DNA from: Antedon mediterranea
Lineage: Eukaryota; Animalia; Echinodermata
DNA length: 64,000 bases
Assembly (NCBI RefSeq): GCF_964355755.1
Contig: NC_092674.1
Location: forward strand, 5,890,001-5,954,000
Direction of reading: 5' to 3'
The notes beneath the pieces were generated by a model. It was not told the DNA's origin, searched no databases, and was given only the letters and a program-made list of their open reading frames with translations. A program made the translations under genes and the position numbers. Numbering within the stretch: the first letter of the stretch is position 1; every line of letters starts with the position of its first letter. Of the stretch, positions 38,693 through 62,795 are shown one piece after another.

Positions 38693-38710
38693 ATCGTCCA
38701 AACACGTCTT

Positions 38711-40690
38711 TCAGAGCGGTTTGCTGGCCTGGTACAGCAAATCAATGGAAGTGAATCGATAGTATGCAGCAAGGGGGAGGAATATAATATTGATGATTAC
38801 AATAGTGTTTCCGAACGTTAAGTCATTTGTAGCAGTAGAATACTTTTCATTATCCGGAGAAACGAGTAAAATTATCAACCATTGAGTGACGTTTGTAATC
38901 ATCAAATAAATTAAAGAACGACGAATGATCGCGTTACCTCCATCATCTACACCTCTAGATCTCCGAGATTTTAGGATGAGCATTGTTTGCAGAGTTGATT
39001 GTACCAAGTTTATAACGGTCAATACAATTAGACCGGTCTGTATAACTATGCTATAGTTAATTTCCGATTTATCGACGTCAACAACTGTCTCTGTAAGGTT
39101 ATGGAAATCTGCGATTAAATTGCCGGTTGCCGATATACCATCACAGCAGCTTAACACAAATACACCTATTAAGCAAATCAGAAGAAGTATTTCGCTTCTG
39201 TTTAGCGACTTGTACAATTTCAGCCGGTTCTTATCTAGGTACTTTTTAGCAAGTATTATAGCAATGATCATTGTAGATTTGTAAATGATGAGACTGAATA
39301 TTAGGATGATACTGACGCTGTCGTGTTGGTGTAGAGTATAAAACTCTGTCATGCTTATCACAAATATAGACATTAGTAGAAGCACCACAAATATTATTAA
39401 CACCCTCGATGAACAGCGTCTGTTTGTAGATGGTATGTTACAATCCATGCTATCGTTGGGAGCGGTACTTATCTGTAGGGTTCTGTTGGTTAGTAGTCCA
39501 CACTGTCTGCTTCCGCAATTTTCTGTGTCACTTACACTGCCAATGTTTTCACTTCTGTCGTCGTTCGAATGCAAACTTGTCCAGTAGTGAAGAAGAATAC
39601 TCACAGCTAAAATATTGTACTCTTGTGAAAATGGTTGGAAAACACTTAGAAACTTCTGTATAGGAATTTGTACCAGCAGTGCATTCACACTATAGCACCA
39701 GACGACCTCATCATAGCTATTTGACGTAATGTTTGCTGGCTGTAAGTGTATCAAGGGCCAAGTCAGCTCCTGATATTCCACTTTTATTCCAAGTACAAGA
39801 ATACTTTCCTTTGCGATATTTTCCATCCAGCTGAGAACATTCGCAGACATGGTTAAAATGAACACATATTGGAAAAAAGAGCAGTTCTTGAAGGAAGCAC
39901 CTCTGAAACTTCTGAAGAACGCCACCTGAGCGATTGTAAAAAACACTTTAAAACAGTTGTATGCTACAAAAACAGTTTCGCGATACTTTTCTTTTCGTCT
40001 GCTTAGTAACGGAACACACTTTCCAATAACTACAATGTTTGTCAAGGCTAACACAATGTTGCAAATACCAAAGATATAAACACCAACAAGATGTTCAGAG
40101 TAGTTTTGAGAGTGAATATTTCCCGGAGAAGAGCCCTCCAAAAGAAGTGGTTGACGTTCATCATTAGGAAGCAACTGTTTTTTAGGACATCTGATAAGGT
40201 CTAACCTTTGCCATGATTTTTTTCTTCGAAGAATTAATATGATTACCGTTACGGAAACTGTATCAAAAATAATACAACTCCAATCTAACGTGTCCCCATG
40301 CACAGGATGACGTCCGCTACCGTAGAACGCAAACAGAAAAGCAATATAAAATGACGTTAATAGGAAAAATACAATCATGGACAATACACGACCGTCTTCG
40401 ACATAACTTTGCCGTGTTTTCACTAAGATGTCTCTGTCTTGATTCTCCAAAGCTGACCTGTACTCACCAGTTGTCATACTCATAGCGTCTGTTGTTGTTG
40501 CTGCTGCTGCTGTTCTGTCAACTGAAGACATGTCTTCTAGCTCTAGTTGTTCCTCACCAGACCAATCATTGCCTGTTGCTGGTCCATTTTCAGAAAACCA
40601 ATTAGAAGATTCTAGTTCTCTTCCCAAACCAGACACATATTCAACTATGTTTCCATTTTCCGTTTTTCTTCCATTAGTAAATGAAGACAT
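38711..40690 (-). CDS. Otopetrin-like multi-pass membrane protein, type A (659 aa, intronless)
   Basis: About 12 hydrophobic segments in two halves; otopetrin-like motifs FTIAQVAFF, SANVLSW, FQPFSQEYNILAVSILLHYW (cf. LYPFNIEY), QSTLQTMLIL, YLMITNVTQW, LPLAAYYRFTS (cf. P..IFYRxHS). Confidence 0.8.
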   Translation of the reverse strand: MSSFTNGRKTENGNIVEYVSGLGRELESSNWFSENGPATGNDWSGEEQLELEDMSSVDRTAAAATTTDAMSMTTGEYRSALENQDRDILVKTRQSYVEDGRVLSMIVFFLLTSFYIAFLFAFYGSGRHPVHGDTLDWSCIIFDTVSVTVIILILRRKKSWQRLDLIRCPKKQLLPNDERQPLLLEGSSPGNIHSQNYSEHLVGVYIFGICNIVLALTNIVVIGKCVPLLSRRKEKYRETVFVAYNCFKVFFTIAQVAFFRSFRGASFKNCSFFQYVFILTMSANVLSWMENIAKESILVLGIKVEYQELTWPLIHLQPANITSNSYDEVVWCYSVNALLVQIPIQKFLSVFQPFSQEYNILAVSILLHYWTSLHSNDDRSENIGSVSDTENCGSRQCGLLTNRTLQISTAPNDSMDCNIPSTNRRCSSRVLIIFVVLLLMSIFVISMTEFYTLHQHDSVSIILIFSLIIYKSTMIIAIILAKKYLDKNRLKLYKSLNRSEILLLICLIGVFVLSCCDGISATGNLIADFHNLTETVVDVDKSEINYSIVIQTGLIVLTVINLVQSTLQTMLILKSRRSRGVDDGGNAIIRRSLIYLMITNVTQWLIILLVSPDNEKYSTATNDLTFGNTIVIINIIFLPLAAYYRFTSIDLLYQASKPL

Positions 40691-42922
40691 ATTTGTTTCT
40701 ATGTCTACACAATACGAAAACTTATTTCCTCATGTTCAAAACGAACAAATTCATGTATAAGAGTGAAATACAATCCGTCTCGGTAATATCTCGGTAATTT
40801 CCTTGTGTTATTCTTAGCCTCATTGGCTGTACAGTAATTCCAAAATTCATGAAGTGTATTGTGTACTTCTTCCTGGTTATCGGTACTCACATAGACTTTC
40901 CCCAAGTAGTTATTGTCTTTTTTTATAATATTGTTCGTACTGTCGATTCCAGCTCAATAAGTATACGTATGACACGCCATGTGCCAACAAATGCACCACC
41001 AAAATCTTTGGCCAAACTACTCAAAATATATGCTACGAGTGCTTTATTTAAAACAAGCACAAACAGTAAAACTGATATCAACCATCACCGAATTATTACT
41101 TGTTTCACGTCTGATTATTATTTAATTGCACGAAGATACTTTTCTATTTGCACATTGTTATGTATTGTCAAGATATATATTTAGATTAATAATATTCGCC
41201 AATAATTCGATGCAATCATGGAACAAGCAAGTTTTCCGCGTACTAATTAACTACATTTTTATAGTAAAAATTGCCAATTTCTTCTAATTGTGTAGATTTA
41301 GTGTAGAATTTTTACTTTTAATTGAACCAAAATAAAGTACAGTACTTCAAATACCTTTAGTGGCGCTTCATCGACAGTCTGTCGACTTCTTCAAGTGTTT
41401 GGATTGGTGTGTAATGTATGACGCTGTAATAATATGACAATAGTAGAATTGGTTTCACTTCCTAACAATCATGTTTAAGTTTTACTTTGTTTATCCTATC
41501 GCGTTTATTCGCTATTAGTTTATTAAGTATATTGACTTTTACACTTGTATAATTTCTCTTAAACATTTAAAATTAACAAATTATTATGATTAATGTAAGT
41601 TAAGTAAATGATTATAATTATGTATTAATTATGTACAATAGTTTATTATGCATCATATACATGATATGATTGAATGAAATTGAATAAAAGTGGTGCATGC
41701 CAAAAAAAAAAATATATATATATATATATTGTAATCGACTATCGCAAGTCATCTAGATACGATTATGTGTATTAAATAGGCTGTCGTTAGGTTCGTATGT
41801 AGTGCATTGAGTATAGTTTTAGATTAGTAATACACTTACATTATAAAAACCTAAGTAGGGTAAATGCAACACCTTTCGTTTTCTCTTAGTGTAAAATAAA
41901 TTAACTCCATTAGAAAAAAAATCAATTCAATGCAAATGATCTAAATGACGTCACAAATTAATTGTAAATTTATTCGTCTAAATATCTTAACAAATCAAGA
42001 AATACAACCATTTCATTTGTATATACCGACAAATTCTGTCACATCGACTAATACATTTTTAATTACAAAAGATAATAATGCTTTCTAATTTAATTTAGCA
42101 ATGTGACTATTAACAATTAAGACTATGATACAATTAGTCATTGAGTTATCGGTGATTATTCCGATAGCTGGCGTAACTAAAACAATCTACCCAATATCAT
42201 AATAAATAAAAACCAGAGATACTCAATACAACATGAACCAAGTCAGATGAATCTTATGACCTTTGAACTTAAGCTTTAAACACTCCATTTATTATTGACC
42301 AAGTTTGATTGAAATCAAACTTCCATTTGTAAGACTAACCTACTATCCATAATTATGTAAAATAAAATACAAATTTACATAATTACGTTATTATTACATT
42401 AATATTACATCACGAGCTACACACATAGTACAAGTCGTAAAACCTCTTCACCACGAGATCACGTGACCATCATTAGCCTACATTTAGTTATACCAGGGAG
42501 TTGAACTCCCTGGTTATACAATTCCAATGTTTTGGCATTCCTTTTTAATTGAGTATAACATTTATTAGTGTAATACAGGCTTTTTATTTTACATTATTTA
42601 CATTTTTTGTAATGGTATATAGTAGTTTGATTTAGTATAGTTTTAGTATACTTTGTCATTTTAAAAAGGACCCTCATATATCAGCTGTCATGCAGATCCT
42701 AAATAAAGTTAAACCTAACATTTTAAAAACTTCATTATTATTACTACATTACGTAAGAGCTATACACAAACACATACAAGTCGTAAAACCTCTTTACCGA
42801 GATCACGCATACAATGACCACCAGTACACTTAGTTATACCAGGGAGTTGAACTATATCAGCTGTCATTCAGATCTTAAATAAAGTTAGTTTTTTTTTAAA
42901 TTCATCCATTCACTCTGTAGTA

Positions 42923-44826
42923 CTACTTCAAAAGCTTGTAGATTTGGTAAAGCAAACTTACACTAATAAATCGAATGTATGCAGCAAGCGGGTAAACAAA
43001 TATGTTAATAACAAAAATAGACTTTCCAAAAACGACATCGTTTTGGTCAGATGAGTAAATTTCAGAACCTGGAGAAAAGTATGCATTGCCTAACCAGTGA
43101 GCGGCATTAGCTATCATTAAATAAATCAAACAACGGCGAATGATAACTTTAGAATGATCGTCCATGCTCCTAGCCCTTCGAGATTTCAGGATTAACATTG
43201 TCTGGCGGCTTAGTTGAACTATGTTAACAACTGCCATTACAAACAGACCGATCCCTCTAGTTAGATTGTAATCAACTTCCGATGTATCCATTTCAAATTT
43301 CTCTGTAAGATTCTGGACATCTATTATTACATTACTAGTTGCAGCTATACCATCACAGCAACTTATCACAAATATGCCGACTAGGCAGAAGAGAAGTAGT
43401 CGTTCGCTTCTGCTTAGCGACTTGCATAGTTTTATTGGAGTTTTATTACAGTGCTTTTTGCCAACTTCTGTTGCTATAAGCATGGTGAATTTGTAAATTA
43501 ACAAACCAAATATTTCTATGGTACTGACACTATGACTATGTGGGATTAGATTAAACAACTCTGACATACCTATCGTTGCTACGCATAGTAATATTATTCC
43601 TATAATTACAACACCGTGAATAAATTTAATATTGCCTCTTGTCGTAAATTCCGTGGACTGTCCATGGTCTATGTATTCGGTGTTAATAGCGGTTATGTAT
43701 TGTGTTCTATTACGTAATTGTGACCAGCTAACGCGAACTCTTTGAACTTGTACTATGTCTCTAGCGTTTTCGTTTATAGGCCTACTATCTAGTATATTTC
43801 CACTTCTGTCGTTCGAATGCAAATTCGTCCAGTAGTGTAGCAGAATGCTTACAGCCAAAATGTTATACTCTTTGGAAAACGATTGACAAATTCTCAACAC
43901 CGTCTGCATCGGAGAAGAATTTACCATTAACTGACTGTAACACCAAGCAACAACATATTTGCTATCTGTTGTATTTGCTGGCTGTACATTTATCAATGGC
44001 CAAGTCTTTTCAATGTATTCATCTTTTATTTCCTCTGCCGTACTTGACATCAAACAAAGAATATTCGCAGAAATTGTTAAAGTGAACGCATATTGGAACA
44101 AAGAAGAGTTTCTGAAGGAGGCACTTTTAAAACATCGGAAGAATGCTATCTGAATACAGGTGAAAAACACTTGTAAACAGTTGGATATTATATAAATAAC
44201 TTCTTGATATTTATCTATGTCTCTAGTTACAGATTCGCACATTCCAATCAATGAATGTATATAAGTGATTGAAAAATGTTGCAAATACCAAACAAATAAA
44301 CACCCGCAATAGGTTCAGAAGAAGTTTCGCTGCTTATATTTTGTGCGGGATGCTGACCTGACAAGAGTAGTGGTCTACGTTCATCATTACAGAACAAATG
44401 TCCTTCAGGATTTCGGATGATTTCTACCTTTTTACGCAGAATATATATCATCATTGTCATTGAAATAGAGTAATTAGTAATATTAATCCAATCCAAAATG
44501 TGCCTATGTACAGCATATCGTCCGTTACTATAAAGAGCAAACAGAAAAGCAATGTAAAATGAAATAATGAAGAAAAATACAATCAACGATGAAACCTGAC
44601 CATCTTCAACAAAACTGATATCACTTGTGATGGTAGTTACTTCATAATTTCTTTCCAAATCAGTTAAAATGTTTCCATTTGCTGTTGCAGTTCCATTGGA
44701 AGAAGACGACATATTTTCCAGGTCAGGCCAGCAATCAGTTAAAATATTTCCATTTTCTGTTGAAGTTTCATTTGGAGATTGGTCTTTCCTTCTGTCTTCT
44801 GCTGTTCCATCGGAAGAAGACGACAT
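42923..44826 (-). pseudogene. Otopetrin-like type B copy 1, single 1-bp deletion at ~44253
   Basis: Near-identical to 54804-56693; + strand CAATCAATG-AATGTAT here versus CAATCAATGTAATGTAT in both paralogues; ORF split into 44248-44826 and 42923-44284. Confidence 0.8.
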
Positions 44827-45635
44827 ATTTTCCAGGTCAGACCAGAATTCAGTTCAGGTTGAAATAAAATCCGTCTCGGTATGTAATATCTCGATAATTT
44901 TCTTGTGTTATTCTTAGTCTCATTGGCTGTACAGCAATCCCAAAATGCATGCATTGTTTCTTCCTCATTGATTTACAGTTGACCACATTTCAATGTTATT
45001 CCCAATCATTAAGTATTATTTCCTATTTCTTCCTATCGGTACTCACATAGACTTTCCCCAAGTTTTTCTTTTATTTTCAAGACACGTCATGATCTGTTGA
45101 GTGTCCATTCCCAAGAGACATGTTAGATTGTCACTTCTTTTCCACATTAGGCAGGTGTTCACTTATATTTCCATTTTCTGTTGCCTTTCCATTTCCAAGT
45201 GATGACATTATTATTCTTAGCTCTCAATCTACACCATACAACTGACACTGTAATTATTTCCTGTAGTTTGAAACTAGTACAGTATTGTACATTATTTGTA
45301 TAAGGGTATGAATACAATCCATCCCAATACTATGTGTCATACAATAGGCTTACAGTTACTTTGTTTAATCTAAAAAGTTGGAGGAGTAAAAATGCAAATA
45401 TAGCATAAAAAATAAATATATACACATAATTATAGGCCTACTATATATAATTAAAAAAATAATAGACTTAAACAGGTTTTGTTTTGGAAAGGCTTCTTAG
45501 TTCTTGCCAGAATTAAGAAAATATAATCAATAATGTTGTTTATAATTATAATGAAAATATTGATATTGATTGTTAAAAATAAAAATACAGTATTCAAAGT
45601 TATTATTCAATTGATAAGTCTTACATGTAGGTTAG

Positions 45636-47609
45636 TCAATTCTTCAAAGATTTACTGGCTTGGTACAGCAAATCTACCGAAGTGAATCGGTAATACGCAG
45701 CAAGAGAGCGGAAAGTGATATTTACAATCACCATTGTGTCTCCGAACATAAAATAATTTGTATCATAAAAGCATGTTTTAGAGTCCGGAGAAACAACTAT
45801 ATTACTCAGCCAGATAGTGGCATTGGTTATCATTAAATACTTCAAACAACGTCGAATGATAACTTTAGCGTCATTATCAATACTCTTAGTTCGTCGAATT
45901 TTCAAGATGAGTATTGTTTGCAGACTTGTTTGTACTATGTTTATAATTGTCAATAAAATCATAAAAAGCTGTCTTGCTATGCTAAGATTCATTTGCGATT
46001 TATTGATTTCCGCCGTTTCTGTGAGATTCTGGATATCTGCTATCAATTTGCCAGTTGCAGAAACACCACCACAGCAGCTCAACACATATACACCGATTAG
46101 GCAGAATAGAAGAAGTGATTCGCTTCTGTTTAAGGACTTACACAATAATTGTTGTGGAGTTTTATTAAGATAGTTTTTGGCAAATACGATAGCAATAATC
46201 ATAGTAGATTTGTAAATTAATAGAGTAAATATCTGTATGGTACCAAATATATCATATTGGATAAAGGTATACAATTCTGTCATACCTATAATAAAAACAG
46301 ATGGTAGTAAGATAAATACTGCCAGTGCTATCCATTGACAGCAGTTATAGTTAGTTTTTTTGTTGTTGCTTGCTGTGCGTTCGTTTACTCTATAATCTGA
46401 AATAGTACGTGTTATGCAGCGCCTTCTAACCTGATCTCGGCTGTTGTCATTGTAATTGGTGGTTGTAGTTCCGTATGCACTTCCTACCATCCTTGTGCGT
46501 GTGGCTGTATTTCGGTCATTATTGGGATGCATACTCATCCAATAGTGCAGCAGAATACTTACACACACAATATGAAATTCTTTTGAAAATGGTTGAAGAC
46601 TGCTGAACAATGTACGTAGAGGAGTTTGAATTTGATCGTAGCATATTAAGATATTATCGTTCTTATTTGACATATTTGCTGGCTCTAAATCAATCAGTGG
46701 CCAATCCAATTCCTTATATTCCGCTGGTATTCCACTTACAGCAAGACTTTCATTTCCGACACTATCAATCAAGCTGAGAATATTCGAAGACATCGTAAAG
46801 ATGAATGCATATTGAAAAAAAGAGCAGTTTTTGAAAGAGGCCCCTTTAAAACATCTGAAGAACGTCATCTGGACTGAAGTGAAAAACACTTGGAAAAACG
46901 TGTACATTATAAACACACCCTGTCGATAGGTATCTATATCTCTAGTTAGTAAATGGACACACATTCCAGTAAGTACAATATGCGTCACTGATAGAATGAT
47001 GTTTAATGTACCAAAGACATAAACGCCAACAAGAGGCTCAGAGACGTTTTCGTACTTAATCTTCTCTGGTGGTGGAAAATCTTCTAAGAGGAGAGGTTGA
47101 CGTTCATCACTAGGTAGCGACTGTCTTTGAGGATTTCTAATAAAGTCAAGCTCTTGCCATGATTTTCTCTTTCGCAGAATGTACATCATTATTATCATTG
47201 AAATCGAATGGATAATGATAACAATCCAATGCAAAATGTCCCCATGAATACTATAGCCTCCGCTACTATAGTGAGCCAACAGCAAAGTAATGTAAAATGA
47301 AATGAAGCAGAAAAACACGAACATTGACGACAAACGGCCATCCTCGACGAAACTGCTTGTATCACATGTTGTTCTTTGATCTCCTGATTTTTGCGTTCTA
47401 TCCTCAAATGAAGGTTCTTGATTTATTTCTGAAATTTCCTCGTCAGATGAACCAATATTAACTTCTAGCTGTTTTTGTACATACGGATCATTGTTGTATG
47501 TTGCTGTACTGTCCAAAGACCTATTATATTGTAGCCTTTCTTCTACATCAGGCAGGTATTCACTTATGTTTCCATTTTCTGTTTCCTTTCCATTCCTAAA
47601 CAAAGACAT
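45636..47609 (-). CDS. Otopetrin-like protein, type C (657 aa, intronless)
   Basis: Same architecture as 38711-40690: FTSVQMTFF, LQPFSKEFHIVCVSILLHYW, QTSLQTILIL, YLMITNATIW, LAAYYRFTS. Confidence 0.8.
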   Translation of the reverse strand: MSLFRNGKETENGNISEYLPDVEERLQYNRSLDSTATYNNDPYVQKQLEVNIGSSDEEISEINQEPSFEDRTQKSGDQRTTCDTSSFVEDGRLSSMFVFFCFISFYITLLLAHYSSGGYSIHGDILHWIVIIIHSISMIIMMYILRKRKSWQELDFIRNPQRQSLPSDERQPLLLEDFPPPEKIKYENVSEPLVGVYVFGTLNIILSVTHIVLTGMCVHLLTRDIDTYRQGVFIMYTFFQVFFTSVQMTFFRCFKGASFKNCSFFQYAFIFTMSSNILSLIDSVGNESLAVSGIPAEYKELDWPLIDLEPANMSNKNDNILICYDQIQTPLRTLFSSLQPFSKEFHIVCVSILLHYWMSMHPNNDRNTATRTRMVGSAYGTTTTNYNDNSRDQVRRRCITRTISDYRVNERTASNNKKTNYNCCQWIALAVFILLPSVFIIGMTELYTFIQYDIFGTIQIFTLLIYKSTMIIAIVFAKNYLNKTPQQLLCKSLNRSESLLLFCLIGVYVLSCCGGVSATGKLIADIQNLTETAEINKSQMNLSIARQLFMILLTIINIVQTSLQTILILKIRRTKSIDNDAKVIIRRCLKYLMITNATIWLSNIVVSPDSKTCFYDTNYFMFGDTMVIVNITFRSLAAYYRFTSVDLLYQASKSLKN

Positions 47610-49945: not shown

Positions 49946-50984
49946 AAAACATTTTTTAAATATAATCCTTAAGCTTTGTCTATACTATCAAACTAAATAT
50001 GATGTGCCCATATTATATAGACATGACGATGTCATATCACTACGATATTCGGGCATATCACTAGCATATTTGGGCACATCACACTTTTTTTGTTAAACTA
50101 GTTGGGACAGTGTAGACACAGAACTATGTGATCGAAACATAAGTCGGAATTGGACTGACGCGATTGATTTAATTGGGTATTTTTATTAATGTAATGATTC
50201 ATTAAAAACTATAATACCGATACGCGTTTGGTATTGATCAATGGTGCAAAAAACCCTGAGAAATAATGTTATAACGCGATTTGGTGATAGCTTAGCAATA
50301 ATACAACCCATATACTATTATTATAAATACCTATTACAAATCCATTCATATAACTTTGATCGCGAACCGAAAATGTATAAATGTTACTCTACAGACAGTA
50401 ATTATATATTCAAAAGCCATATTATTATTATTATCAATACTTAAATGCGATAGTAATAACCACATACATTATTCCCAATACAAGTTTGTGCGTTTAATTC
50501 TAGAAAGAAACGACTGTGCTGACAGGCCAATGACATAAATCACAAGTAAAGTCCCAATTGTTCACTTGCGTTTTGATTGGCCGACCTATTATATTAGATT
50601 AATGAAGACTGTTCTTACAACTGCCCAGTCAAAAAGTTACGCGGCGTTTTTTGTAAGAAATATTTCTTGTTTAGATATATAACCACATGTACAAATGAAT
50701 TGATTACTGTGTGTGTGGGTACAGTTAGATATATAAACACATTAATATACAAATACACTTTAATACTGACAGTTGCTTCTCAACGTTTGTATTAATTAAT
50801 AATTACAAAAAAATATAAACGTCATAGTGGTGTATCGTTACATGTACTATTTCAATCGACTATGACAGTGACAGTTTTAACAAATTATTAAATCGCAAAT
50901 GTTTTACTGTATTTATTGGTATATTATTTATAGGCCTATAAAACATGAAAACAAATTTTGTTAGTGAATGGATACAAAATATAT

Positions 50985-51500
50985 TTAAGGCAGAACAGAA
51001 GAAGTGATTCGCTTCTTTTTAAAGATTTACAAAATCGTTGTTGAGTTTGATTAAAGTACTTATTGGCAAAAACTACAGCAATAATCATGGTAGATTTGTA
51101 AATCAACAGCGCAAATACTTGTATGGTACCAAATGTATCATATTGGATAAAGGTATACAATTCTGTCATACCTATAATAAAAACAGATGGTAGTAAGATA
51201 AATACTACCAGTTATTGTTGGTATTGTTTGTTGTGCGTTTGCTTATTCTGTCGTGTGGAATAGCGGTCATTTTGTGTGGTGTTCTGCAGCGCTTTCTAAC
51301 GGGATTTTTGTAAAAATTGTTGGCTGTAGGTCTGTACGTACTTCCTACCATCCTTGTGCGTTTGGTGTATTTCTGTCTTTGGGATGCAAACTCATCCAAT
51401 AGTGCAGCAGAATACTTGCACACACAATATTATACTCTTTTGAAAATGGTTGAGGACTGCTCAAGAATGTACGTAAAGGAGTTTGGATGTTATCGTTGCA
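50985..51500 (-). pseudogene. Otopetrin-like type C internal fragment with frameshifts
   Basis: Nearly identical to 52979-53450 (RTRMVGSTYRPTANNF, MTELYTFIQYDTFG...RSESLLL). Confidence 0.8.
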
Positions 51501-52359
51501 CCATAGGCTTATTGTTATTTGATATATTCACTGGCAGACAATCTATTTCTTGGTATTGTTGCCTTTCTATTTCCAAGAGAAGACACTATTATTCTTAGCT
51601 CTTAATCTACACCATACAACTAACACTGTAATTATTTCCTGTAGTTTGAAACTATACAGTACAGTATTGTACATTGAATACAATCCGGCCCAATGTGTTT
51701 TTAATGTATAGAGTGTAGGTATGCCCTGAAGAATGGGTATACTAAGGTTATTTCCCAAAAATTTCGTAGTTTTCGTTTCCAAACATACAATAGGCTTACA
51801 GTTGTTTACTCTAAAAAGTTGAAAAACATAAGAAGATATCTACTTTATATAGCATAGTGTTAAAAGATCATACGAAAATTCTACTGCTGTATAAACAAAT
51901 AACTATTTATACAAGGCATGAACAATAAATGCTAAAAAACAACGTATAACAATGTAGGCTACATGCCTTTAGTCTAGATTTAAAGCTGATGTGTTTATAT
52001 GGAACAGGCTATACGTCTTGTACCATTCGGAGTAAAATGCAATTGTAGCATAAAAAATAAATATAAACACATAATATAATATAAACAAGGCCATTACATG
52101 GCTGTAGTCGCGTGCTCAAGTTAGTGTTTACCGACCAACCGACCGACCAACCAACTGACCGGCATAGTGATCTGTAGAGTCGCGTTGCACGTGACTAAAA
52201 ATAATAAACTTTTTAGAAAGGCCCCTTAGTGATTGTTCGTTCTTGCCAGAATTAAGAAAATAATAATCAAGAACTGCTGCTTATAATCACAATGAGAATA
52301 TTGATATTAATTGTTAAAAATAAACATAATTTAAACTAATATTTATACTAGAATGTTAG

Positions 52360-53900
52360 TCAATTCTTCAAAGATTTACTGGCTTGGTAGAGTAAATCTA
52401 CCGAAGTGAATCGATAATACGCGGCAAGAGGGCGGAAAGTGATGTAAACAATATCCATAGTTTTTCCGAACATAAAATAATTTGTATCAAAATAGCATGA
52501 TTTAGAGTCAGGAGACACAACTATATTACTCAACCATAGAGTGGCATTAATTATTATTAAATACTTTAAACAACGACGAATGACAACTTTAGCGTCATTA
52601 TCAATACTCCTAATTCGTCGAATTTTTAGGATGAGCATTGTTTGCAGACTTGTTTGTACTAAGCTAATAACTGCCAGTAAAATGAGACCGAACTGTCTTG
52701 CTATCCTTTGATTAATTTGAAATTCATTGATATCCACCTTCTGCGCCGATAGATTTTGGAAATCTGCTATTAATTTTCCAGCTGCAGAAACTCCGCCACA
52801 GCAGCTCAACACATATACACCGATTAGGCAGAAGAGAAGAAGTGATTCGCTTCGGCTTAAGGACTTAGGACTAGACAATTGTTGAGTTTTGTTAAGGTAT
52901 TTTTTGGCCAGTACTACAGTAATAACCATTGTAGATTTGTAAATTAAATTACAATTAAAAATTGTTCCTCTTTGTTAGAAGAAGTGATTCGCTTCTTTTT
53001 AAAGATTTACAAAATCGTTGTTGAGTTTGATTAAAGTACTTATTGGCAAAAACTACAGCAATAATCATGGTAGATTTGTAAATCAACAGCGCAAATACTT
53101 GAATGGTACCAAATGTATCATATTGGATAAAGGTATACAATTCTGTCATACCTATAATAAATACAGATGGTAGTAAGATAAATACTGCCAGTTTGTTAGT
53201 ATTGTTTGTTGTGCGATGGCTTATTCTGTCGTGTGGAATAGCGGTCATTTTGTGTGGTGTTCTGCAGCGCTTTCTAACGGGATTTTTGTAAAAATTGTTG
53301 GCTGTAGGTCTGTACGTACTTCCTACCATCCTTGTGCGTGTGGCTGTATTTCTGTCTTTGGGATGCAAACTCATCCAATAGTGCAGCAGAATACTCGCAC
53401 CCACAATATTATACCCTTTTGAAAATGGTTGAAGACTGTTAAAGACTGTACGTAGAGGAGTTTGAATTTGATCGTAGAACAGTAAGACCTTATCGTTCAT
53501 ATTTGACATATTATTTGGTGTCCAATCCAGTTCCTGATATCCCGATGGTATTCCACTTACAGCATAACTTTCTTTTCCGACACTATCTATCCAGCTGATA
53601 ATATTCGAAGACATCGTAAAGATGAGTGCATATTGGAGAAAAGTACAGTTTTTGAAAGAGGTGCCTTTGAAACATCTGAAGAACGCCATTGTGAAAAACA
53701 CTTCTCGATATTTATCTATACCTCTAGATAGTAAAGGGACACACATTCCAGTAAGTACAATATGCGTCACTGATAGAATGATGTTTAAGGTACCAAATAT
53801 ATAAACGCTGACAAGAGGTTCAGAGACGTTTTCGAACTTAATCTCCTCTGGTGGCGGACAATCTTCTAAGAGGAGTGGTTGACGTTCATCACTAGGTAGC
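52360..53900 (-). pseudogene. Otopetrin-like type C, 5'-truncated and chimeric
   Basis: Homology ends at 53900 against a Helentron-like fragment; in-frame deletion in TM3 (REVFFTMAFF); break at ~52945-52978 where LIYKSTM..RSESLLL is repeated from a second paralogue. Confidence 0.8.
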
Positions 53901-54073
53901 TGACCTTGACCTATGACATTTCCCTCTCAAAATCGAACTCGTCCGAGCTTTTGGGGCATAGATCATTGTGGCCAAATTTGGTGAGAATCGGATAAAAACT
54001 ATGGCCTCCAGACTGTTCACAGACAGACACACAAACATACAGGGGTGAAAATATAACCTCCTTGGCGGAGGTA
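53901..54073 (+). mobile_element. Truncated copy of the Helentron-associated element at 58375-58933
   Basis: TGACCTTGACCTATGAC...ACAGACAGACACAC...AACCTCCTTGGCGGAGGT. Confidence 0.7.
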
Positions 54074-54803: not shown

Positions 54804-56693
54804 CTACTTCAAAAGCTTGTAGATTTGGTAAAGCAAACTTACACTAATAAATCGAATGTATGCAGCAAGCGGGTAAACAAATATGTTAATAACAAAAATA
54901 GACTTTCCAAAAACGACATCGTTTTGGTCAGATGAGTAAATTTCAGAACCTGGAGAAAAGTATGCATTGCCTAACCAGTGAGCGGCATTAGCTATCATTA
55001 AATAAATCAAACAACGGCGAATGATAACTTTAGAATGATCGTCCATGCTCCTAGCCCTTCGAGATTTCAGGATTAACATTGTCTGGCGGCTTAGTTGAAC
55101 TATGTTAACAACTGCCATTACAAACAGACCGATCCCTCTAGTTAGATTGTAATCAACTTCCGATGTATCCATTTCAAATTTCTCTGTAAGATTCTGGACA
55201 TCTATTATTACATTACTAGTTGCAGCTATACCATCACAGCAACTTATCACAAATATGCCGACTAGGCAGAAGAGAAGTAGTCGTTCGCTTCTGCTTAGCG
55301 ACTTGCATAGTTTTATTGGAGTTTTATTACTGTGCTTTTTGCCAACTTCTGTTGCTATAAGCATGGTGAATTTGTAAATTAACAAACCAAATATTTCTAT
55401 GGTACTGACACTGTGACTATGTGGGATTAGATTAAACAACTCTGACATACCTATCGTTGCTACGCATAGTAATATTATTCCTATGATTACAACACAGTGA
55501 ATACATTTAATTTTGCCTCTTGTCGTCAATTCCGTGGACTGTCCATGATCTATGTATTCGGTGTTACTAGCGGTTATGTATTGTGTTCTATTACGTAATT
55601 GTGACCAGCTAACGCGATAACTTTGAACTTCTACTATGTCTCTAACGTTTTCGTTTATAGGCCTACCATCTAGTATGTTTCCACTTCTGTCGTTCGAATG
55701 CAAATTCGTCCAGTAGTGTAGCAAAATGCTTACAGCCAAAATGTTATACTCTTTGGAAAACGATTGGCAAATTCTCAATAGCGTCTGCATCGGAGAAGAA
55801 TCTACCATTAACTGACTGTAACACCAAGCAACAATATCTTTGCTATCTGTTGTATTTGCTGGCTGTACATTTATCAATGGCCAAGTCATTTCATGGTATT
55901 CGTCTTTTATTTCCTCTGCCGTACTTGACATCAAACAAAGAATATTCGCAGACATTGTTAAAGTGAACGCATATTGGAACAAAGAAGAGTTTCTGAAGGA
56001 GGCACTTTTAAAACATCGGAAGAATGCTATCTGGATACAGGTGAAAAACACTTGAAAACAGTTGTATATTATATAAATAATCTCTTGATATTTATCTATG
56101 TCGCACATTCCAATCAATGTAATGTATATAAGTGATTGAAAAATATTGCAAATACCAAACAAATAAACACCCGCAATAGGTTCAGAAGAGGTTTCTCTGC
56201 TTATATCTTGTGCGGGATGCTGACCTGACAAGAGTAGTGGTCTACGTTCATCATTACAGAACACATGTCCTTCAGGATTTCGGATAATTTCTACCTTTTT
56301 TCGCAGAATATATATCATCATTGTCATTGAAATAGAGTAATTAGTAATACTAATCCAATCCAAAATGTGCCTATGTACAGCATATTGTCCGTTACTATAA
56401 AGAGCAAACAGAAAAGCAATGTAAAATGAAATAATGCAGAAAAATACAATCAACGATGAAACCTGACCATCTTCAACAAAACTGATATCACTTGTGATGG
56501 TGGTTACTTCATAATTTCTTTCCAAATCAGTTAAAATGTTTCCATTTGGTGTTGCAGTTCCATTGGAAGAAGACGACATATTTTCCAGGTCAGGCCAGCA
56601 ATCAGTTAAAATGTTTCCATTTTGTGTTGAAGTTTCATTTGGAGATTGGTCTTTCCTTCTGTCTTCTGCTGTTCCATCGGAAGAAGACGACAT
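54804..56693 (-). CDS. Otopetrin-like type B copy 2 (629 aa, intact, intronless)
   Basis: Uninterrupted ORF; FTCIQIAFF, FSKEYNILAVSILLHYW, QLSRQTMLIL, YLMIANAAHW, YPLAAYIRFIS; lacks 5 aa (ESVTR) present in copies 1 and 3. Confidence 0.8.
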   Translation of the reverse strand: MSSSSDGTAEDRRKDQSPNETSTQNGNILTDCWPDLENMSSSSNGTATPNGNILTDLERNYEVTTITSDISFVEDGQVSSLIVFFCIISFYIAFLFALYSNGQYAVHRHILDWISITNYSISMTMMIYILRKKVEIIRNPEGHVFCNDERRPLLLSGQHPAQDISRETSSEPIAGVYLFGICNIFQSLIYITLIGMCDIDKYQEIIYIIYNCFQVFFTCIQIAFFRCFKSASFRNSSLFQYAFTLTMSANILCLMSSTAEEIKDEYHEMTWPLINVQPANTTDSKDIVAWCYSQLMVDSSPMQTLLRICQSFSKEYNILAVSILLHYWTNLHSNDRSGNILDGRPINENVRDIVEVQSYRVSWSQLRNRTQYITASNTEYIDHGQSTELTTRGKIKCIHCVVIIGIILLCVATIGMSELFNLIPHSHSVSTIEIFGLLIYKFTMLIATEVGKKHSNKTPIKLCKSLSRSERLLLFCLVGIFVISCCDGIAATSNVIIDVQNLTEKFEMDTSEVDYNLTRGIGLFVMAVVNIVQLSRQTMLILKSRRARSMDDHSKVIIRRCLIYLMIANAAHWLGNAYFSPGSEIYSSDQNDVVFGKSIFVINIFVYPLAAYIRFISVSLLYQIYKLLK

Positions 56694-57520
56694 ATTTTCC
56701 AGGTCAGACCAGAATTCCGTTCAGATTGAAATAAAGTCCGTCTCGGTATGTAATATCTCGATAATTTGCTTGTGTTATTCTTAGTCTCATTGGCTGTACA
56801 GTAAAATCAATCATAAATTCATGCATTGTTTCTTCCTCATTGATTTACAGTTGACCACATTTCAATGTTATTCCAAATCATTAAGTATTATTTCCTATTT
56901 CTTCCTATCGGTACTCACATAGACTTTCCCCAAGTTTTTCTTTTATTTTCAAGACACGTCATTATCTGTTGAGTGTCCATTCCCAAGAGACATGTTAGAT
57001 TGTCGCTTCTTTTCCACATTAGGCAGGTGTTCACTTATATTTCCATTTTCTGTTGCCTTTCCATTTCCAAGTGAAGACATTATTATTCTTAGCTTCTTAT
57101 TCTTCTCAATCTACACACCATATAACTGACACTGTAATTATTTCCTGTAGTTTGAAACTAGTACAGTATTGTACATTATTTGTATAGAATACAAAGAATG
57201 GGTATACTAAGGTTATTTCCCAATTTCGTCATTAGATCTATCATTGATTGATTGATTGAATTTTACGGTTGATTGAAATTTCGTAGTTTTCGTTTCCAAT
57301 CATACAATATGCTTACAGTTATTTTATGTACTCCAAAAAGTTGAAAAACATAATAAGACGTCTACTTTAAATAGCATTAGTGTTAAAAGATCATTCGAAA
57401 ATTCTACTGCTGTATAAACAAATAACTATTTCTATAAGGCATGAACAATGAATGTTAAAAAATAACGTATAACAATGTAGGCTACGTGCCTTTAGATATA
57501 ATGCTGGTGTGTCTATATGG

Positions 57521-58336
57521 TTAACCAAATGTATCATATTGGATAAAGGTATAGAATTCTGTCATACCTATAATAAATACAGATGGTAGAAAAATAAATA
57601 CTGTCAATGTTATCCATTGACAGCAGTTATAGTTAGTATTGCTTACTTTGCGTTCTTCTGGCATAGCGGTGCTCGTGCGAACTGTTCTGCAGCGCCTTCC
57701 AACGTGATTTCTGTTTTCGTAGCTGGTGGTTGTAGTTCCGTACGTAGGCCTAATTCCTACCATCCTTGTGCGTGTGACTTTACTGTCGTCGGGATGCAAA
57801 CTCATCCAATAGTGCAGCAGATTACTCGCACCCATAACATTATACGCTTTCAAAAATGGTTGAAGACTGCTCAAGAATGTACGTAGAGGAGTTTGAATTT
57901 TATCGTTGCACAGTAAGACCTTATCGTTCATATTTGACATATTATTTGGTGTCCAATCCAGTTCCTGATATTCCACTGGTATTCCACTTACAGCATAACT
58001 TTCTTTTCCGACACTATCTATCCAGCTGATAATATTCGAAGACATCGTAAAGATGAGTGCATATTGGAGAAAAGTACAGTTTTTGAAAGAGGTGCCTTTG
58101 AAACATCTGAAGAACGCCATTGTGAAAAACACTTCTCGATATTTATCTATACCTCTAGATATTAAAGGGACACACATTCCAGTAAGTACAATATGCGTCA
58201 CTGATAGAATGATGTTTAAGGTACCAAATATATAAACGCTGACAAGAGGTTCAGAGACGTTTTCGGACTTAATCTCCTCTGGTGGCGGACAATCTTCTAA
58301 GAGGAGTGGTTGACGTTCATCACTAGGTAGCGACTG
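57521..58336 (-). pseudogene. Otopetrin-like type C fragment truncated at both ends
   Basis: Near-identical to 53450-53900 with the same TM3 deletion; ends at QYDTFG*. Confidence 0.8.
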
Positions 58337-58374
58337 GTTATTCCGATAGCTGGCTTAACTAAAACAACCTACCA

Positions 58375-58933
58375 ACTAGAGGGTACTCCGAGAGTACAAA
58401 CCTCCGCCTACTGTAAAATTCTCCTACATAAAATGTCCCCGGAAAATATATATATACTTTTTTTACATTTTTTTTATTAGCTCTAAGTGTAAATACGCTA
58501 AATGCAAACTACAAAGTTGTGGATGAGAGTTTGGTGTAATGGTTATGTATCCAGCCTCTCATAGTTGAGATCGCTGGTTCAAGTCCCGCTGAATTTTTTT
58601 TAAATTATTTTTTTATTTCTTTTTTTTTGTGGACCTTGATCTTTGACCCTGACCCTTCAAAATTTAACCACAAGAGTCATTGATCATTGTGGCTAGGTTT
58701 GGTGAGAATCGGATAAAAACTGTGGTCTCTAGCAGTAAAATAGTTTTTTGTTAGTTGTGACCTTGACCTATGACCTTTCCCCTCAAAATCGAACTCGTCC
58801 GAGCTTTTGGGGCATAGATCATTGTGGCCAAATTTGGTGAGAATCTGATAAAAACTGTGGCCTCCAGACTGTTCACAGACAGACAGACACACAAACATAG
58901 GGGTGAAAATATAACCTCTTTGGCGGAGGTAAA
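58375..58933 (+). mobile_element. Helentron-associated (HINE-like) element
   Basis: AACTAGA start, subterminal inverted ACCTCCGCC / GGCGGAGGT, TGACCTT motifs, (ACAG)n microsatellite, internal tRNA-like segment ~58532-58588. Confidence 0.7.
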
Positions 58934-59450
58934 TATAATAAATAGAAACTAGTCAGATAAATCTTATGACCGTTGAAGCTAAGCTTTAAACACTCCATTT
59001 ATTATTGACCAAGTTTGATTGAAATCAAATTTCCATTTGTAAGACTAACCTACTATCCATAATTATGTAAAATACAAATTTACATAATTACGTTATTATT
59101 ACATTAATATTACATCACAAACTACACAAACACATAGTACAAGTCGTAAAACCTCTTCACCACGAGATCACGTAACCATAAGTAGCCTACATTTAGTGAT
59201 ACCAGGGAGTTGAACTCCCTGGTTATACAATTCCAATGTTTTGGCATTCCTTTTTAATTGAGTATAACATTTATTAGTGTAATACAGGCTTTTTATTTTA
59301 CATTATTTACATTTTTTGTAATGGTATATAGTAGTTTGATTTAGTATAGTTTTAGTATACTTTGTCAAAAAGGACCCTAATATATCAGCTGTCATGCAGA
59401 TCGTGAATAAAGTTAGTTTTTTTTTTAATTCATCCATTCACTCTGTAGTA

Positions 59451-61394
59451 CTACTTCAAAAGCTTGTAGCTTTGGTAAAGCAAACCTACACTAATAAATC
59501 GAATGTATGCAGCAAGCGGGTAAAGGAATATGTTAATAACGAAAATAGACTTTCCAAAAACTACATCATTTTGGTCAGATGAATAAATTTGAGAACCTGG
59601 AGAAAAGTATGCATTGCCTAACCAGTGAGCGGCATTAGCTATCATTAAAACAATTAAACAACGACGAATGATAACTTTAGAATGATCGTCCATGCTCCTA
59701 GCCCTTCGAGATTTCAGGATTAACATTGTCTGGCGGCTTACTTGAACTATGTTAACAACTGCCATTACAAACAGACCGATCTCTCTAGTTAGATTGTAAT
59801 CAACTTCCGATGTATCCATTTGAAATGTCTCTGTAAGATTCTGGACATCTATTATTACATTACTAGTTGCAGCTATACCATCACAGCAACTTAGTACAAA
59901 TATGCCGATTAGACAAAAGAGAAGTAGTCGTTCGCTTCTGTTTAGCGACTTACATAGTTTTATTGGAGCTTTATTATAGTGCTTTTTGCCAACTTCTGTT
60001 GCTATAAGCATGGTGAATTTGTAAATTAACAAACCAAATATTTCTATGGTACTGACACTATGACTATGTGGGATTAGAATAAACAACTCTGACATACCTA
60101 TAGCTGCTACGCATAGTAATATTATTCCTATAATTGCAACACAGTGTATACATTTAATGTTGCCTCTTGTCGTCAATTCCGTGGACTGTCCATGGTCTAT
60201 GTATTCGGTGTTAATAGCGGTTATGTATTGTGTTCTATTACGTAATTGTAAACAGCTAGCGCGATCTCTTTGAACGTGTACTATGTCTCTAGCGTTTTCG
60301 TTTATAGGCCTACTATCTAGTATATTTCCACTTCTATCGTTCGAATGCAAATTCGTCCAGTAGTGTAGCAGAATGCTTACAGCCAAAATGTTATACTCTT
60401 TGGAAAACGATTGACAAATTCTCAACACCGTATGCATCGGAGAAGAATTTACCATTAACTGACTGTAACACCAAGCAACAACATCTTTGCTATCTTTTGT
60501 ATTTGCTGGCTGTACATTTATCAATGGCCAATTCATTTCATGGTATTCATCTTTTATTTCCTCTGCCATACTTGACATCAAACAAAGAATATTCGCAGAC
60601 ATTGTTAAAGTGAACGCATATTGGAACAAAGAAGAGTTTCTGAAGGAGGCACTTTTGAAACATCGGAAGAATGCTATCTGGATACAGGTGAAAAACACTT
60701 GTAAACAGTTGGATATTATATAAATAACTTCTTGATATTTATCTATGTCTCTAGTTACAGATTCGCACATTCCAATCAATGTAATGTATATAAGTGATTG
60801 AAAAATTTTGCAAATACCAAACAAATAAACACCCGCAATAGGTTCAGAAGAAGTTTCGCTGCTTATATCTTGTGCTGGATGCTGACCTGACAAGAGTAGT
60901 GGTCTACGTTCATCATTACAGAACACATGTCCTTCAGGATTTCAGATAATTTCTACCTTTTTTCGCAGAATATATATCATCATTGTCATTGGAATAGAGT
61001 AATTAGTAATACTAATCCAATCCAAAATGTGCCTATGTACAGCATATTGTCCATTACTGTAGAGAGCAAACAAAAAAGCAATGTAAAATGAAATAATGCA
61101 GAAAAATACAATCAACGATGAAACCTGACCATCTTCAACAAAACTGATATCACTTGTGATGGTAGTTACTTCATAATTTCTTTCCAAATTAGTTAAAATG
61201 TTTCCATTTTCTGTTGCAGTTCCATTTGGTGATTGATCTTTCCTTCTGTCTTCTGCTATTCCATGGGAAGAAGACGACATATTTTCCAGGTCAGGCAAGC
61301 AATCAGTTAAAATGTTTCCATTTTCTATTGCAGAACCAGTTGGAGATCGGTCTTCCCTTCTGTCTTCTGCTGTTCCATTGGAAGAAGACGACAT
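59451..61394 (-). pseudogene. Otopetrin-like type B copy 3, single in-frame CGA>TGA at 60942-60944
   Basis: ORFs 60942-61394 and 59451-60926 are in the same frame; paralogues read EIIRNPEGH where this copy reads EII*NPEGH. Confidence 0.8.
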
Positions 61395-62275
61395 ATTTTC
61401 CAGGTCAGATCAGTTAAAATGTTTCCATTTTCTGTAGCAGTTTCATTTGGAGATTGGTTTTCACTTCTGTCTTTTGCTGTTTCATTGGAAGAAGACGACA
61501 TATTTTTTCAGGTCAGACAAGCAAACAGTTCAGAGAGAAATAAATATCCGTCTCGGTAATATCTCGATAATTTTCTTTTGTTATTCTTAGTCTCATTGCA
61601 GTGTTTTTTTCCTCATTGATTTACAGTTGACAACATATTTTTTTTATTCAGTATTATTTCCTGTTTCTTCCTATCGGTACTCACAAAGACTTTCACCAAT
61701 ATTTGTTTATATTATTTTGTCGATTACAGCTCAGTCTATTGTACCTATGACATGTATACAAAAAAACCTATGACACGCCGTATTAAGCCAAATCACGTCT
61801 CTAGTGATCGCTGCAGAATCTCGTGCGAGATTACAGAGGAACTAGAATTTACGTCTCTATTGTTGTTTTGATTGTTTGATCAGAGTTAAATTACTCTTCC
61901 CTGGTTTGATCGATTGAACGTGATCATTTTATGTTTAAAAACGCTTTGGTTGTTATTAGAAATAGCGAAAATTAAATCATAACAATAAGTCTATCAAAAC
62001 GATTGAGACAAATTTACTGTGGTGTGCCAACCTACATTGTGTCATACTTACGTCCGAAGGTAAACTTTACTAGCAAATATTTTACATTTGTGTATGCAAC
62101 TCGATTTTGTAATAATACAAACTTTCTATAAAGTTTCAAATGTTTTCTCATTTTTGCAGAATTACTCCATCAGAAAATGTAATTATGATTGAAATGATTA
62201 AAATTAGAAATCACATTTGATATTAAGATGCAATAAAAAACGTAAATTAATACTAAATCAAACAAGTCATTATAT

Positions 62276-62795
62276 TTAATTCTTCAAATACTTACTGGCT
62301 TGATAAAGCAAACCTACCGAAAGAAATCGATAATATGCAGTAAGAGGGCGGAAAATTATGTTAACTATCTCCATAGTTTTTCCAAACAAAAAATCATTTG
62401 TATCGGAAAAACACGTTTTAGAGTCTGGATTAACAACTATATCACCCAACCAGATAGTGGCATTAGTTATCATTACATACTTCAAACAACGATGAATGAT
62501 AACTTTAGCGTCATCATCGATGTAACACAATTCGTGGAATTTGTAGAATGACCATTGTTTGTAAATTTAATCCTACTAAGTTTATAATAGTCAATAAAAT
62601 TAGACCGACCTGTTTCACACTGCTTTAAATAATTTCAGATTCATTAATTTCCACTGTTTCTATGAGATTCTGAAAATCTGCTATCAATTTGGAAGTTGCA
62701 GATGTACCATCGCAGCAGCTCAACACAAATACAGCGATTAGGCAGAAAAGAAGAAGTGATTCGCCTCTGTTTAAGGGTTTACGTAGAGTTATATT
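62276..62795 (-). pseudogene. Otopetrin-like 3' fragment with frameshifts, interrupted by an insertion at ~62796
   Basis: NRGESLLLFCLIAVFVLSCCDG, KYVMITNATIW, RPLTAYYRFLS in broken frames. Confidence 0.78.

Follow-up and report, generated by a model that had tools for sequence, protein, structure and literature searches.

Otopetrins are proton channels that underlie sour taste and the control of pH during skeleton formation. In the crinoid Antedon mediterranea, a run of highly divergent otopetrin-like genes occupies 38.7-62.8 kb on the minus strand of a 64-kb stretch of NC_092674.1 (hereafter the window, meaning the whole stretch analysed). The locus raises the question of whether proteins this far from their characterized relatives, and without a histidine that is essential in vertebrates, can still pass protons, and how such a cluster arose.

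Cluster architecture

The cluster holds three intact single-ORF genes (A, B2 and C1; 629-659 aa), two copies that carry a single lesion and five fragments of C type, besides some short 5′ remnants. Pairwise protein identity among the three subtypes (A, B and C) is 43-48%. Read as they are transcribed, the copies follow one another as C62, B3, C57, B2, C53/C52, C51, C1, B1, A. The features of the cluster are:

38711..40690, minus strand: gene A, intact; single ORF, 659 aa, otopetrin; PF03189 E 4.8e-12 on the C-half; TM12 reads Y-Y-R-F-T, with His replaced by Thr647
40760..40921, minus strand: non-coding blocks 5′ of A, common to all three B copies; CCAAT box; likely promoter or 5′ UTR
42923..44826, minus strand: B1, full-length B copy; frameshift from a 1-bp deletion at ~44253; 1842 of 1889 letters the same as B2
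45080..45208, minus strand: C-type 5′ remnant upstream of B1
45636..47609, minus strand: gene C1, intact; single ORF, 657 aa; PF03189 E 3.9e-6; His replaced by Thr, N-pore Tyr by Phe
50985..51535, minus strand: C51, decayed C-type middle fragment with several frameshifts
~51557-51675, minus strand: C-type start remnant near C51, a short 5′ remnant at ~51.56 kb
52360..52947, minus strand: C52, open C-type 3′ fragment, equal to C1 codons 464-657; PF03189 E 3.9e-10
52976..53900, minus strand: C53, open C-type middle fragment, equal to C1 codons 165-501, without the 5′ part
54804..56693, minus strand: gene B2, intact; single ORF, 629 aa; PF03189 E 2.4e-7; TM12 reads Y-I-R-F-I, with Ile in place of the C-pore Tyr and also of the His
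56952..57080, minus strand: C-type 5′ remnant upstream of B2
57512..58336, minus strand: C57, C-type middle fragment; three in-frame deletions and a near-identical 5′ end in common with C53
59451..61394, minus strand: B3, full-length B copy; one nonsense codon (in-frame TGA, 60942-60944); third copy of a 114-nt N-terminal repeat
62279..62819, minus strand: C62, decayed C-type 3′ fragment; stop and frameshift; Leu at the His position

An earlier sequence-only reading had counted at least nine loci on one strand, and all nine that it listed were found at the positions it gave, on the minus strand. Its three intact copies and two singly damaged ones were confirmed, with the lesions now located. 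Its count of four fragments held in part: four places do contain C-type fragments, but the 52.4-kb locus consists of two pieces, C52 and C53, and the 5′ remnants had been overlooked. The C53-C52 junction carries a 113-nt duplication, such that both pieces span C1 codons 464-501. A spliced gene made of C53 and C52 was set aside because it would still miss the first 164 codons. Each coding sequence lies in one open frame, and the proposed absence of coding introns is upheld; at the local stop frequency, the chance of a 629-codon open frame is ~1e-19 per start. The protein collection annotates C1 as a 520-aa form starting at Met138, as against the 657-aa ORF.

Family assignment and predicted fold

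The cluster proteins belong to the otopetrin family, a call that had previously rested on motif recognition. PF03189 matched the C-halves of A, B1, B2 and B3 at 29.9-46 bits (cut-off 27.8) and that of C1 at 26.5 bits, slightly under the cut-off; four of the five full C-halves scanned were thus above it, and the C52 fragment scored 39.6 bits. Pfam scans of the three full-length proteins (A, B2 and C1) and of three N-halves returned no match, and neither did a single-sequence PDB search with A. A profile built from the cluster and its relatives matched only otopetrins in the PDB (6/6), with both halves aligning to solved structures. A FYR box at the C-terminus is described as a family feature in the available text of PMC2268672. 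Here it is still recognizable but degenerate, as YYRFTS in A and C and as YIRFIS in B.

The helix lists of two AlphaFold models give 12 membrane helices in two six-helix halves, in agreement with the 12-TM architecture proposed earlier; simple hydropathy alone gives 8-10. In fold comparisons with these models, the 12 otopetrin structures took the first 12 places, aligning over 314-401 residues at Z scores of 18.2-22.7 and 19.0-23.5, against 10.7 and 10.8 for the next row. The models, built from shallow alignments, fit solved otopetrins only at an rmsd of 13-16 Å and a Foldseek TM of 0.21-0.28 by query, and so do not establish how the N- and C-halves pack together, the region in which the TM12 His lies. 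ESM Atlas models matched predicted OtopLc at TM 0.64 and 0.69.

Pore residues and the missing histidine

Ten function-linked positions were taken from the available text of PMC6483595. A keeps nine of them, and B2 and C1 eight each, despite a helix identity between subtypes of only 57-59%. The TM6 Glu (Glu321 in Xenopus OTOP3) is present in A, B1, B2, B3 and C1 and lost only in the fragments C53 and C57. All three intact proteins keep Glu357, both Gln/Asn pore pairs, Gln564 and Arg645 (A numbering). The constriction triads (Gln, Asn/Asp, Tyr) of the N- and C-pore are both complete in A; the N-pore Tyr is Phe in C1 and the C-pore Tyr is Ile in the B copies, with every Gln and Asn kept. For TM9 Asp509 the equivalent residue is uncertain, with Ser in register and Glu at the next position; relatives that keep the His include several with the same pattern, and no conclusion is drawn from it.

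The TM12 His is replaced in all seven window copies by Thr, Ile or Leu. It is kept in 13 of the 14 outside relatives having TM12 and in all six PDB sequences. Variation at this position is possible, as the outside relative P0011 has Asn there. In Xenopus OTOP3, either His669Ala or His669Gln is enough to eliminate current, according to the available text of PMC6483595, and the accessible part of PMC12549899 calls the equivalent His574 of zebrafish OTOP1 necessary for function. The latter also reports that small molecules bind at an interface lined by the TM12 His and a conserved Glu. As far as the available text of these two articles goes, the proton route through otopetrins is still open, be it the N-pore, the C-pore or the interface between them. 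What appears to be new here, on sequence grounds, is the retention of most pore residues while the TM12 His is lost in all window copies. The absence of a residue needed for current in Xenopus OTOP3, together with the Tyr losses from the C-pore in B and the N-pore in C1, counts against proton conduction.

Origin and turnover of the copies

The copies appear to have spread by DNA-level tandem duplication, with flanks and promoter-like blocks in common. Flanking sequence is shared among copies, and the flanks of B1 and B2 are 95% identical over 3.1 kb (97% by a second estimate). The blocks upstream of A and B1 are 87% identical over 101 nt; A and B2 coding sequences average 70%, with 83% in the best 100-nt window. 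This upstream DNA common to A and B indicates genomic duplication, and the retrocopy origin proposed earlier is not borne out. No A-run longer than 10 nt lies within 800 nt after any of the seven stop codons, and no close parent gene was present among the 18 matches in the protein collection. A poly(A) remnant, a target-site duplication and a multi-exon parent are marks that would be erased at a dS of ~0.9. Haplotype artefacts were rejected, and the loci stand as true paralogues. A C-B unit is likely to have been duplicated as genomic DNA, with unequal crossing-over the probable route, after which surplus copies would have decayed.

Selection on the cluster is purifying but loose, with a dN/dS of ~0.4. 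Values between A, B2 and C1 are 0.37-0.42, and the upper confidence limit is at most 0.54. Among near copies, dN/dS is 0.5-0.6, with intervals reaching 1 in two of three B pairs (0.30-1.08 for B2/B1). A ratio of 0.4 is high, and it might mean that constraint is decaying. Birth-and-death turnover, as originally suggested, is apparent from the lesions, the shared flanks and a graded dS of 0.04 (B1/B2), 0.18-0.51 (C copies) and ~0.9 (between subtypes). The divergence of C52 and C62 took place under constraint (dN/dS 0.36-0.39), whereas the truncated pair C53/C57 is drifting (1.16, CI 0.76-2.08). Purifying selection is seen on the helices: pairwise dN is 0.27-0.29 in helices, 0.34-0.48 in extracellular loops and 0.45-0.63 in intracellular loops, a low-power comparison of three sequences with by-eye boundaries and no site model. 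Extracellular loops are no faster than intracellular ones, and the analogy to a receptor repertoire is therefore unsupported. With three intact genes, the likeness to chemosensory or immune receptor clusters drawn in the sequence-only reading is not supported beyond gene layout.

Relatives and known systems

Outside otopetrin relatives share 23-34% identity with the cluster proteins. Three Anneissia japonica proteins (XP_033111860.1, XP_033126192.1 and XP_033103403.1) form the sister group of the cluster (support 95/96), and the stem leading to the cluster measures 1.56 changes per column. The nearest sequences are divergent OtopLc-like or uncharacterized proteins of Anneissia japonica, hemichordates and nemerteans (E 2e-22 to 5e-4); unlike the cluster, to which they are 23-28% identical, all nine named animal proteins keep the His. 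The proteins of a second crinoid contain no orthologue closer than ~28% identity, though its Rab9 is 91% identical. Only three intact genes of the cluster's subfamily were found in the protein collection, and metagenome contig scans with P0011 and P0018 yielded no relative among 80 and 40 pattern matches. P0013, an algal 2230-aa match on a short stretch, was dropped as a chance hit.

Vertebrate OTOP1, OTOP2 and OTOP3 (PDB 6NF4, 8UG6, 6NF6, 6O84) share the 12-helix two-half fold, TM6 Glu, pore Gln/Asn and TM12 Arg with the cluster. They are, however, only 12-18% identical to it, and their FYRMH stands against YYRFT or YIRFI, the His being gone. Vertebrate genes have several exons, in contrast to the single-frame coding sequences here (available text of PMC3038909). 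The notion that otopetrins are usually few in number needs some qualification: C. elegans has eight (accessible text of PMC9909269), and in X. tropicalis three Otop2 and three Otop3 paralogues lie together in a tandem cluster (PMC3038909, same portion). The Xenopus case is likewise a lineage-specific tandem expansion at one locus, and such expansion is as such already known. The solved Xenopus OTOP3 nevertheless keeps FYRMH, and the crinoid cluster is far more divergent, with broken copies outnumbering intact ones. C. elegans offers another invertebrate multi-gene family, one member of which passes acid-evoked current (PMC9909269, available text), but CeOTOP8 (PDB 8UG4) keeps FYRFH and is not a close relative. 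Among echinoderms, sea urchin Otop2l suggests a candidate role, proton export from skeleton-forming cells, according to the available text of PMC13000164. No sea urchin or sea star name occurs among the 10 named of 15 outside matches, so that orthology to Otop2l is not indicated.

Our literature search found no paper on crinoid otopetrins, and none whose title or opening abstract lines dealt with such a cluster; most subscription papers and supplements lay outside it, and an alignment of His-less otopetrins could exist in print. The available portions of PMC10377628, PMC13644484 and PMC9582164 hold nothing on such a cluster.

Can the intact proteins pass protons?

We favour, at roughly 55%, a crinoid tandem otopetrin array in which A, B2 and C1, predicted 12-helix proteins of the otopetrin fold, likely remain able to conduct protons, the loss of the TM12 His having probably changed their gating. 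The polar network kept in all three would still form a proton path, as in OTOP1-3, and acid export and acid sensing are candidate roles. Because every copy is without the vertebrate-essential His, passage is predicted to proceed by a modified mechanism. It is possible, though we consider it unlikely, that the intact genes are selected but do not conduct on their own, serving instead as regulatory subunits of a canonical otopetrin dimer or as sensors or carriers of another small solute. The lost His, the C-pore Tyr missing from B copies, the very long stem and the binding of small molecules at the His/Glu-lined interface (PMC12549899, in part) are all compatible with such a role. The retained network argues against it, as does the Asn of P0011, and no candidate partner or ligand can be named.

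It is improbable that the family is largely dispensable and dying, with copies arising readily because the region is rich in repeats and the three open frames left over under weak constraint. Of the three B copies only B2 is unbroken, and of the C copies only C1; near-copy dN/dS intervals extend to 1 in two of the three B pairs, and the gap between ~28% and the 91% of Rab9 in another crinoid would also suit decay. Against this, three frames of more than 620 codons have stayed open across a dS of ~0.9 at a dN/dS well below 1, the helices are the most conserved part, and the upstream block is better conserved than coding sequence. We consider it very improbable that a retrocopy gave rise to a diversifying repertoire of chemosensory or immune-like type; the loop rates, the scarcity of intact subfamily genes, the shared upstream DNA and the failure to find a poly(A) tail or multi-exon parent are all unfavourable to this view. 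Tandem single-frame genes amid pseudogenes and the low identity among subtypes would nonetheless be expected of it. Also in its favour, the sister group includes at least three more divergent otopetrins from the second crinoid, and otopetrins act as taste sensors in vertebrates and are expressed in sensory neurons of nematodes, in the available literature text.

Three naturally selected proteins with the interface Glu kept and the interface His lost, one of them also without a C-pore triad residue, are ready-made tests of the proton route. As a gene cluster the locus is modest, given three intact genes and the tandem precedent in Xenopus. The cluster also shows that very divergent otopetrins are missed when Pfam is run on whole proteins, so marine invertebrates may have more members of the family than have been counted. 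A broader proposal, which we find rather doubtful, is that the cluster forms a natural otopetrin subfamily working without a His thought essential for proton flow, whether by using a different route for protons or by sensing another ligand. It would then belong to a larger radiation of fast-evolving otopetrins, as yet undescribed, that serves chemical sensing in crinoids and other invertebrates of the sea.

The intact genes are likely transcribed. Gene A is spanned end to end, in colinear order, by two overlapping contigs of run X1, which is only guessed to be RNA and has contigs on non-genic DNA too. One X1 contig departs from the genomic sequence at the GT where an upstream kinase exon ends, while a contig of run X2 continues. 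The lack of X1 cover on 42670-43336, in the 3′ part of B1, is uninformative.

Gene content of the cluster

All of the otopetrin-like loci named in an earlier sequence-only reading were confirmed on the minus strand. They fall into subtypes A, B and C, which share 43–48% protein identity, and C-type fragments are named by their position in kb.

Otopetrin-like genes and fragments of the cluster
38711–40690, minus: A, intact frame, 659 aa
42923–44826, minus: B1, 1-bp deletion near 44253; 47 of 1889 aligned letters differ from B2
45636–47609, minus: C1, intact frame, 657 aa
50985–51535, minus: C-type fragment C51
52360–52947, minus: C-type fragment C52
52976–53900, minus: C-type fragment C53
54804–56693, minus: B2, intact frame, 629 aa
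57512–58336, minus: C-type fragment C57
59451–61394, minus: B3, one TGA (60942–60944); 89 of 1890 aligned letters differ from B2
62279–62819, minus: C-type fragment C62
45080–45208, 56952–57080 and near 51.56 kb: short C-type 5′ remnants

An open frame of 629 codons has a chance probability of ∼1e-19, far outside expectation. In the protein collection, the gene call for C1 begins at Met138. A 114-nt repeat makes up the cytoplasmic N-terminus of B and is present about twice in each of B1 and B2 and three times in B3 (61187–61530 and the B1 and B2 5′ ends).

Family assignment and relatives

Membership of the otopetrin family, proposed from the sequence, held up against both Pfam and structure. 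A Pfam scan of the three whole intact proteins gave no match. The C-terminal halves of A (E 4.8e-12) and of B1, B2 and B3 (E 1.4–3.5e-7) matched the Otopetrin model PF03189, and that of C1 fell slightly below the cut-off (E 3.9e-6). Profiles of the cluster and its relatives matched six PDB sequences, all of them otopetrins, across both halves. With AlphaFold models of A (mean pLDDT 66.5, 16 sequences) and B2 (67.4, 23 sequences), Foldseek placed 12 otopetrin structures on top, as did a second structure aligner (Z 18.2–23.5; next rows 10.7–10.8). Counting against the assignment, the models superpose on otopetrin structures at an rmsd of 13–16 Å, which suggests that they place the two halves differently from solved otopetrins; this may be a weakness of the shallow alignments. 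ESM Atlas models scored TM 0.64 and 0.69 against OtopLc models.

An exhaustive search with C1 (E up to 0.001) returned 18 proteins: the three from the window and 15 others at 23–34% identity. Ten of these 15 are named, from Anneissia (three), Saccoglossus (two), Ptychodera, Glandiceps, Tubulanus, Lineus and an alga (one each); the algal protein was dropped as a chance match. In a maximum-likelihood tree of eight window and 13 outside rows (21 in all, excluding database proteins P0013, P0020 and P0141), the window copies all group together (support 100/100), their stem measuring 1.56 changes per column, and the three Anneissia proteins are their sister (95/96); rows were picked by similarity to the window, and attraction of long branches is possible. 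A search of proteins clustered at 90% returned solely the window's three among 7993 scored candidates, so the subfamily looks restricted to this cluster among called proteins, uncalled genes being invisible to such a search. Four database proteins (P0011, P0018, P0019 and P0141) are full-length, divergent and otopetrin-like, and were called on ENA contigs of 10–62 kb; they too would be single-frame genes if the gene caller could not splice.

Growth of the cluster

Read 5′ to 3′ along the minus strand, the copies are arranged as C62, B3, C57, B2, C53/C52, C51, C1, B1, A. Both flanks of B1 and B2 are 97% identical, C1 and C52 have a common 3′ flank, and the same three deletions occur in both C53 and C57, whose 5′ ends almost coincide. 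Genes A and B also share non-coding upstream blocks, absent upstream of C1. One block, with a CCAAT box, is 87% identical over 101 nt, exceeding every 100-nt window of coding sequence; it is either a conserved promoter or a product of gene conversion.

Upstream blocks of A and B, with CCAAT box and conserved GTGAGT
40760–40921
44856–45077
56723–56949
61532–61752

The GTGAGT could be a candidate donor of a 5′ UTR intron. Shared flanks, deletions and upstream blocks together point to growth by duplication of genomic DNA, and the C–B unit probably multiplied through unequal crossing-over. The retrocopy origin proposed earlier is not supported by these data: no poly(A) remnant was found after any of seven stop codons. 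An ancient retroposition of the founder would be compatible with the missing poly(A), yet nothing here indicates one.

The copies are not haplotype artefacts, a concern raised with the initial reading. Assembled contigs of sequencing run X1, from a separate sample and a separate study, differ from A at 3 of 2132 letters and from the 3′ part of B2 at 5 of 1171, well under the divergence of B2 from B1 (2.5%) and B3 (4.7%), and the upstream neighbours of the three B copies differ. Two shorter X1 contigs at the B2 5′ end differ more (8/482 and 17/351) and may derive from other B copies. The 3′ ends of B1 and B2 are matched with 0 differences by contigs of runs X4 and X2, respectively. Unlike those on A and B2, X1 contigs aligned to C1 (45636–47609) carry many differences (six in 45956–46031, seven in 46649–46767), and several contigs of X2–X4 pile up there, which hints weakly that more C1-like copies, or divergent alleles, exist outside the window.

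Selection and pore residues

Nei–Gojobori counts with bootstrap intervals gave dN/dS of 0.37–0.42 (intervals 0.29–0.54) for pairs of A, B2 and C1, at a dS of ∼0.9 that is near saturation. Fragments C52 and C62 gave 0.36–0.39 against C1 and each other, which means that constraint acted on them for the greater part of their existence. The C53–C57 pair gave 1.16 (0.76–2.08), as expected after death, and B pairs gave 0.51–0.59, with intervals reaching 1 in two of three. Judged from these counts, the cluster is one of birth and death under loose purifying selection, and the turnover suggested earlier stands.

Sequence alignment, free of gaps around the TM12 motif, located ten functional positions of Xenopus OTOP3, which PMC6483595 gives as two Gln–Asn/Asp–Tyr triads, Glu321, Gln554, Arg667 and His669 (the C-pore Gln, printed there as 585, is 558 by our count on the PDB chain). 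A keeps nine, and B2 and C1 keep eight each; the C-pore Tyr is Ile in B, and the N-pore Tyr is Phe in C1. The TM12 His is present in none of seven window copies; its place is taken by Thr (A, C1, C52), Ile (B1–B3) or Leu (C62). It is present in all six PDB sequences and in 13 of 14 outside relatives having TM12 (P0011 has Asn; the P0016 sequence is truncated, and P0141 nearly duplicates P0018). Glu321Gln, His669Ala and His669Gln abolish current in Xenopus OTOP3 (PMC6483595), and PMC12549899 describes two zebrafish residues, Glu267 and His574, as necessary and highly conserved.

We favour, at a probability of roughly 0.55, the reading that A, B2 and C1 are proton channels of the membrane in which selection still acts on the polar path, while absence of the interface His alters the gating. 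The main rival, a protein that is non-conducting or repurposed, is a minority possibility of real weight; the lost His speaks for it and the retained pore positions speak against it. A dying family is unlikely: the intact genes look constrained. Least probable is a diversifying sensory repertoire, the receptor-like character once proposed for this cluster. Helix limits were set by eye on the model, and dN then comes to 0.27–0.29 in helices, 0.34–0.48 in outer loops and 0.45–0.63 in inner loops; outer loops are not faster, and there is no sign of receptor-like diversification in these pairwise dN values, which have low power.

Otopetrin expansions are already known: X. tropicalis has three tandem Otop2 and three Otop3 paralogues (PMC3038909) and C. 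elegans eight otopetrin genes (PMC9909269). What is new here is a single-frame, very divergent, His-less form. Our literature search, which reached few subscription papers, found no paper pairing otopetrin with a crinoid and none on such a cluster. In the sea urchin, skeleton-forming cells export protons through Otop2l (PMC13000164), but no evidence ties Otop2l to the crinoid cluster.

Expression

Transcription of the cluster genes is likely. Run X1 is labelled as RNA by guess. One of its contigs (463 letters) fits the genome for 317 and departs at 15561, a GT closing the frame of an ABC1-type kinase exon, through which an X2 contig continues; the break resembles a splice junction. Gene A is covered entirely and gaplessly by two X1 contigs that overlap each other (38636–39894 and 39865–40737), the coverage terminating at 40737, ∼90 nt past the CCAAT box, and others span parts of B2. 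X1 contigs occur on non-genic DNA too. An RNA origin of X1 would mean that A is transcribed and has no intron in its coding sequence.

Neighbourhood

5395–6021, plus: Rab9 gene, full coding sequence in one frame
15551–16423, minus: coding exon 1 of an atypical kinase of the ABC1 type, matched weakly by Pfam (E 0.23)
32089–35901, minus: tandem array of 17 tRNA-Trp(CCA) genes, ∼220-nt spacing, 2.8 kb downstream of A

The window lies on a contig of 31.9 Mb. Among the best matches listed for Rab9, the protein of the crinoid Anneissia japonica stands at 91% identity and none of the others exceeds 71%, which makes the host a crinoid. With Rab9 also coded in one frame, this layout is not unique to otopetrins in the window. 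From its motif, we take the kinase to be ADCK2-like. A partly palindromic element of ∼150 nt, very abundant in the runs, has many copies in the window (among others 3180–3345, 3693–3835, 11612–11775, 22702–22861, 28185–28345, 28888–29028, 31446–31599 and 49969–50121) and looks like a miniature inverted-repeat transposon.
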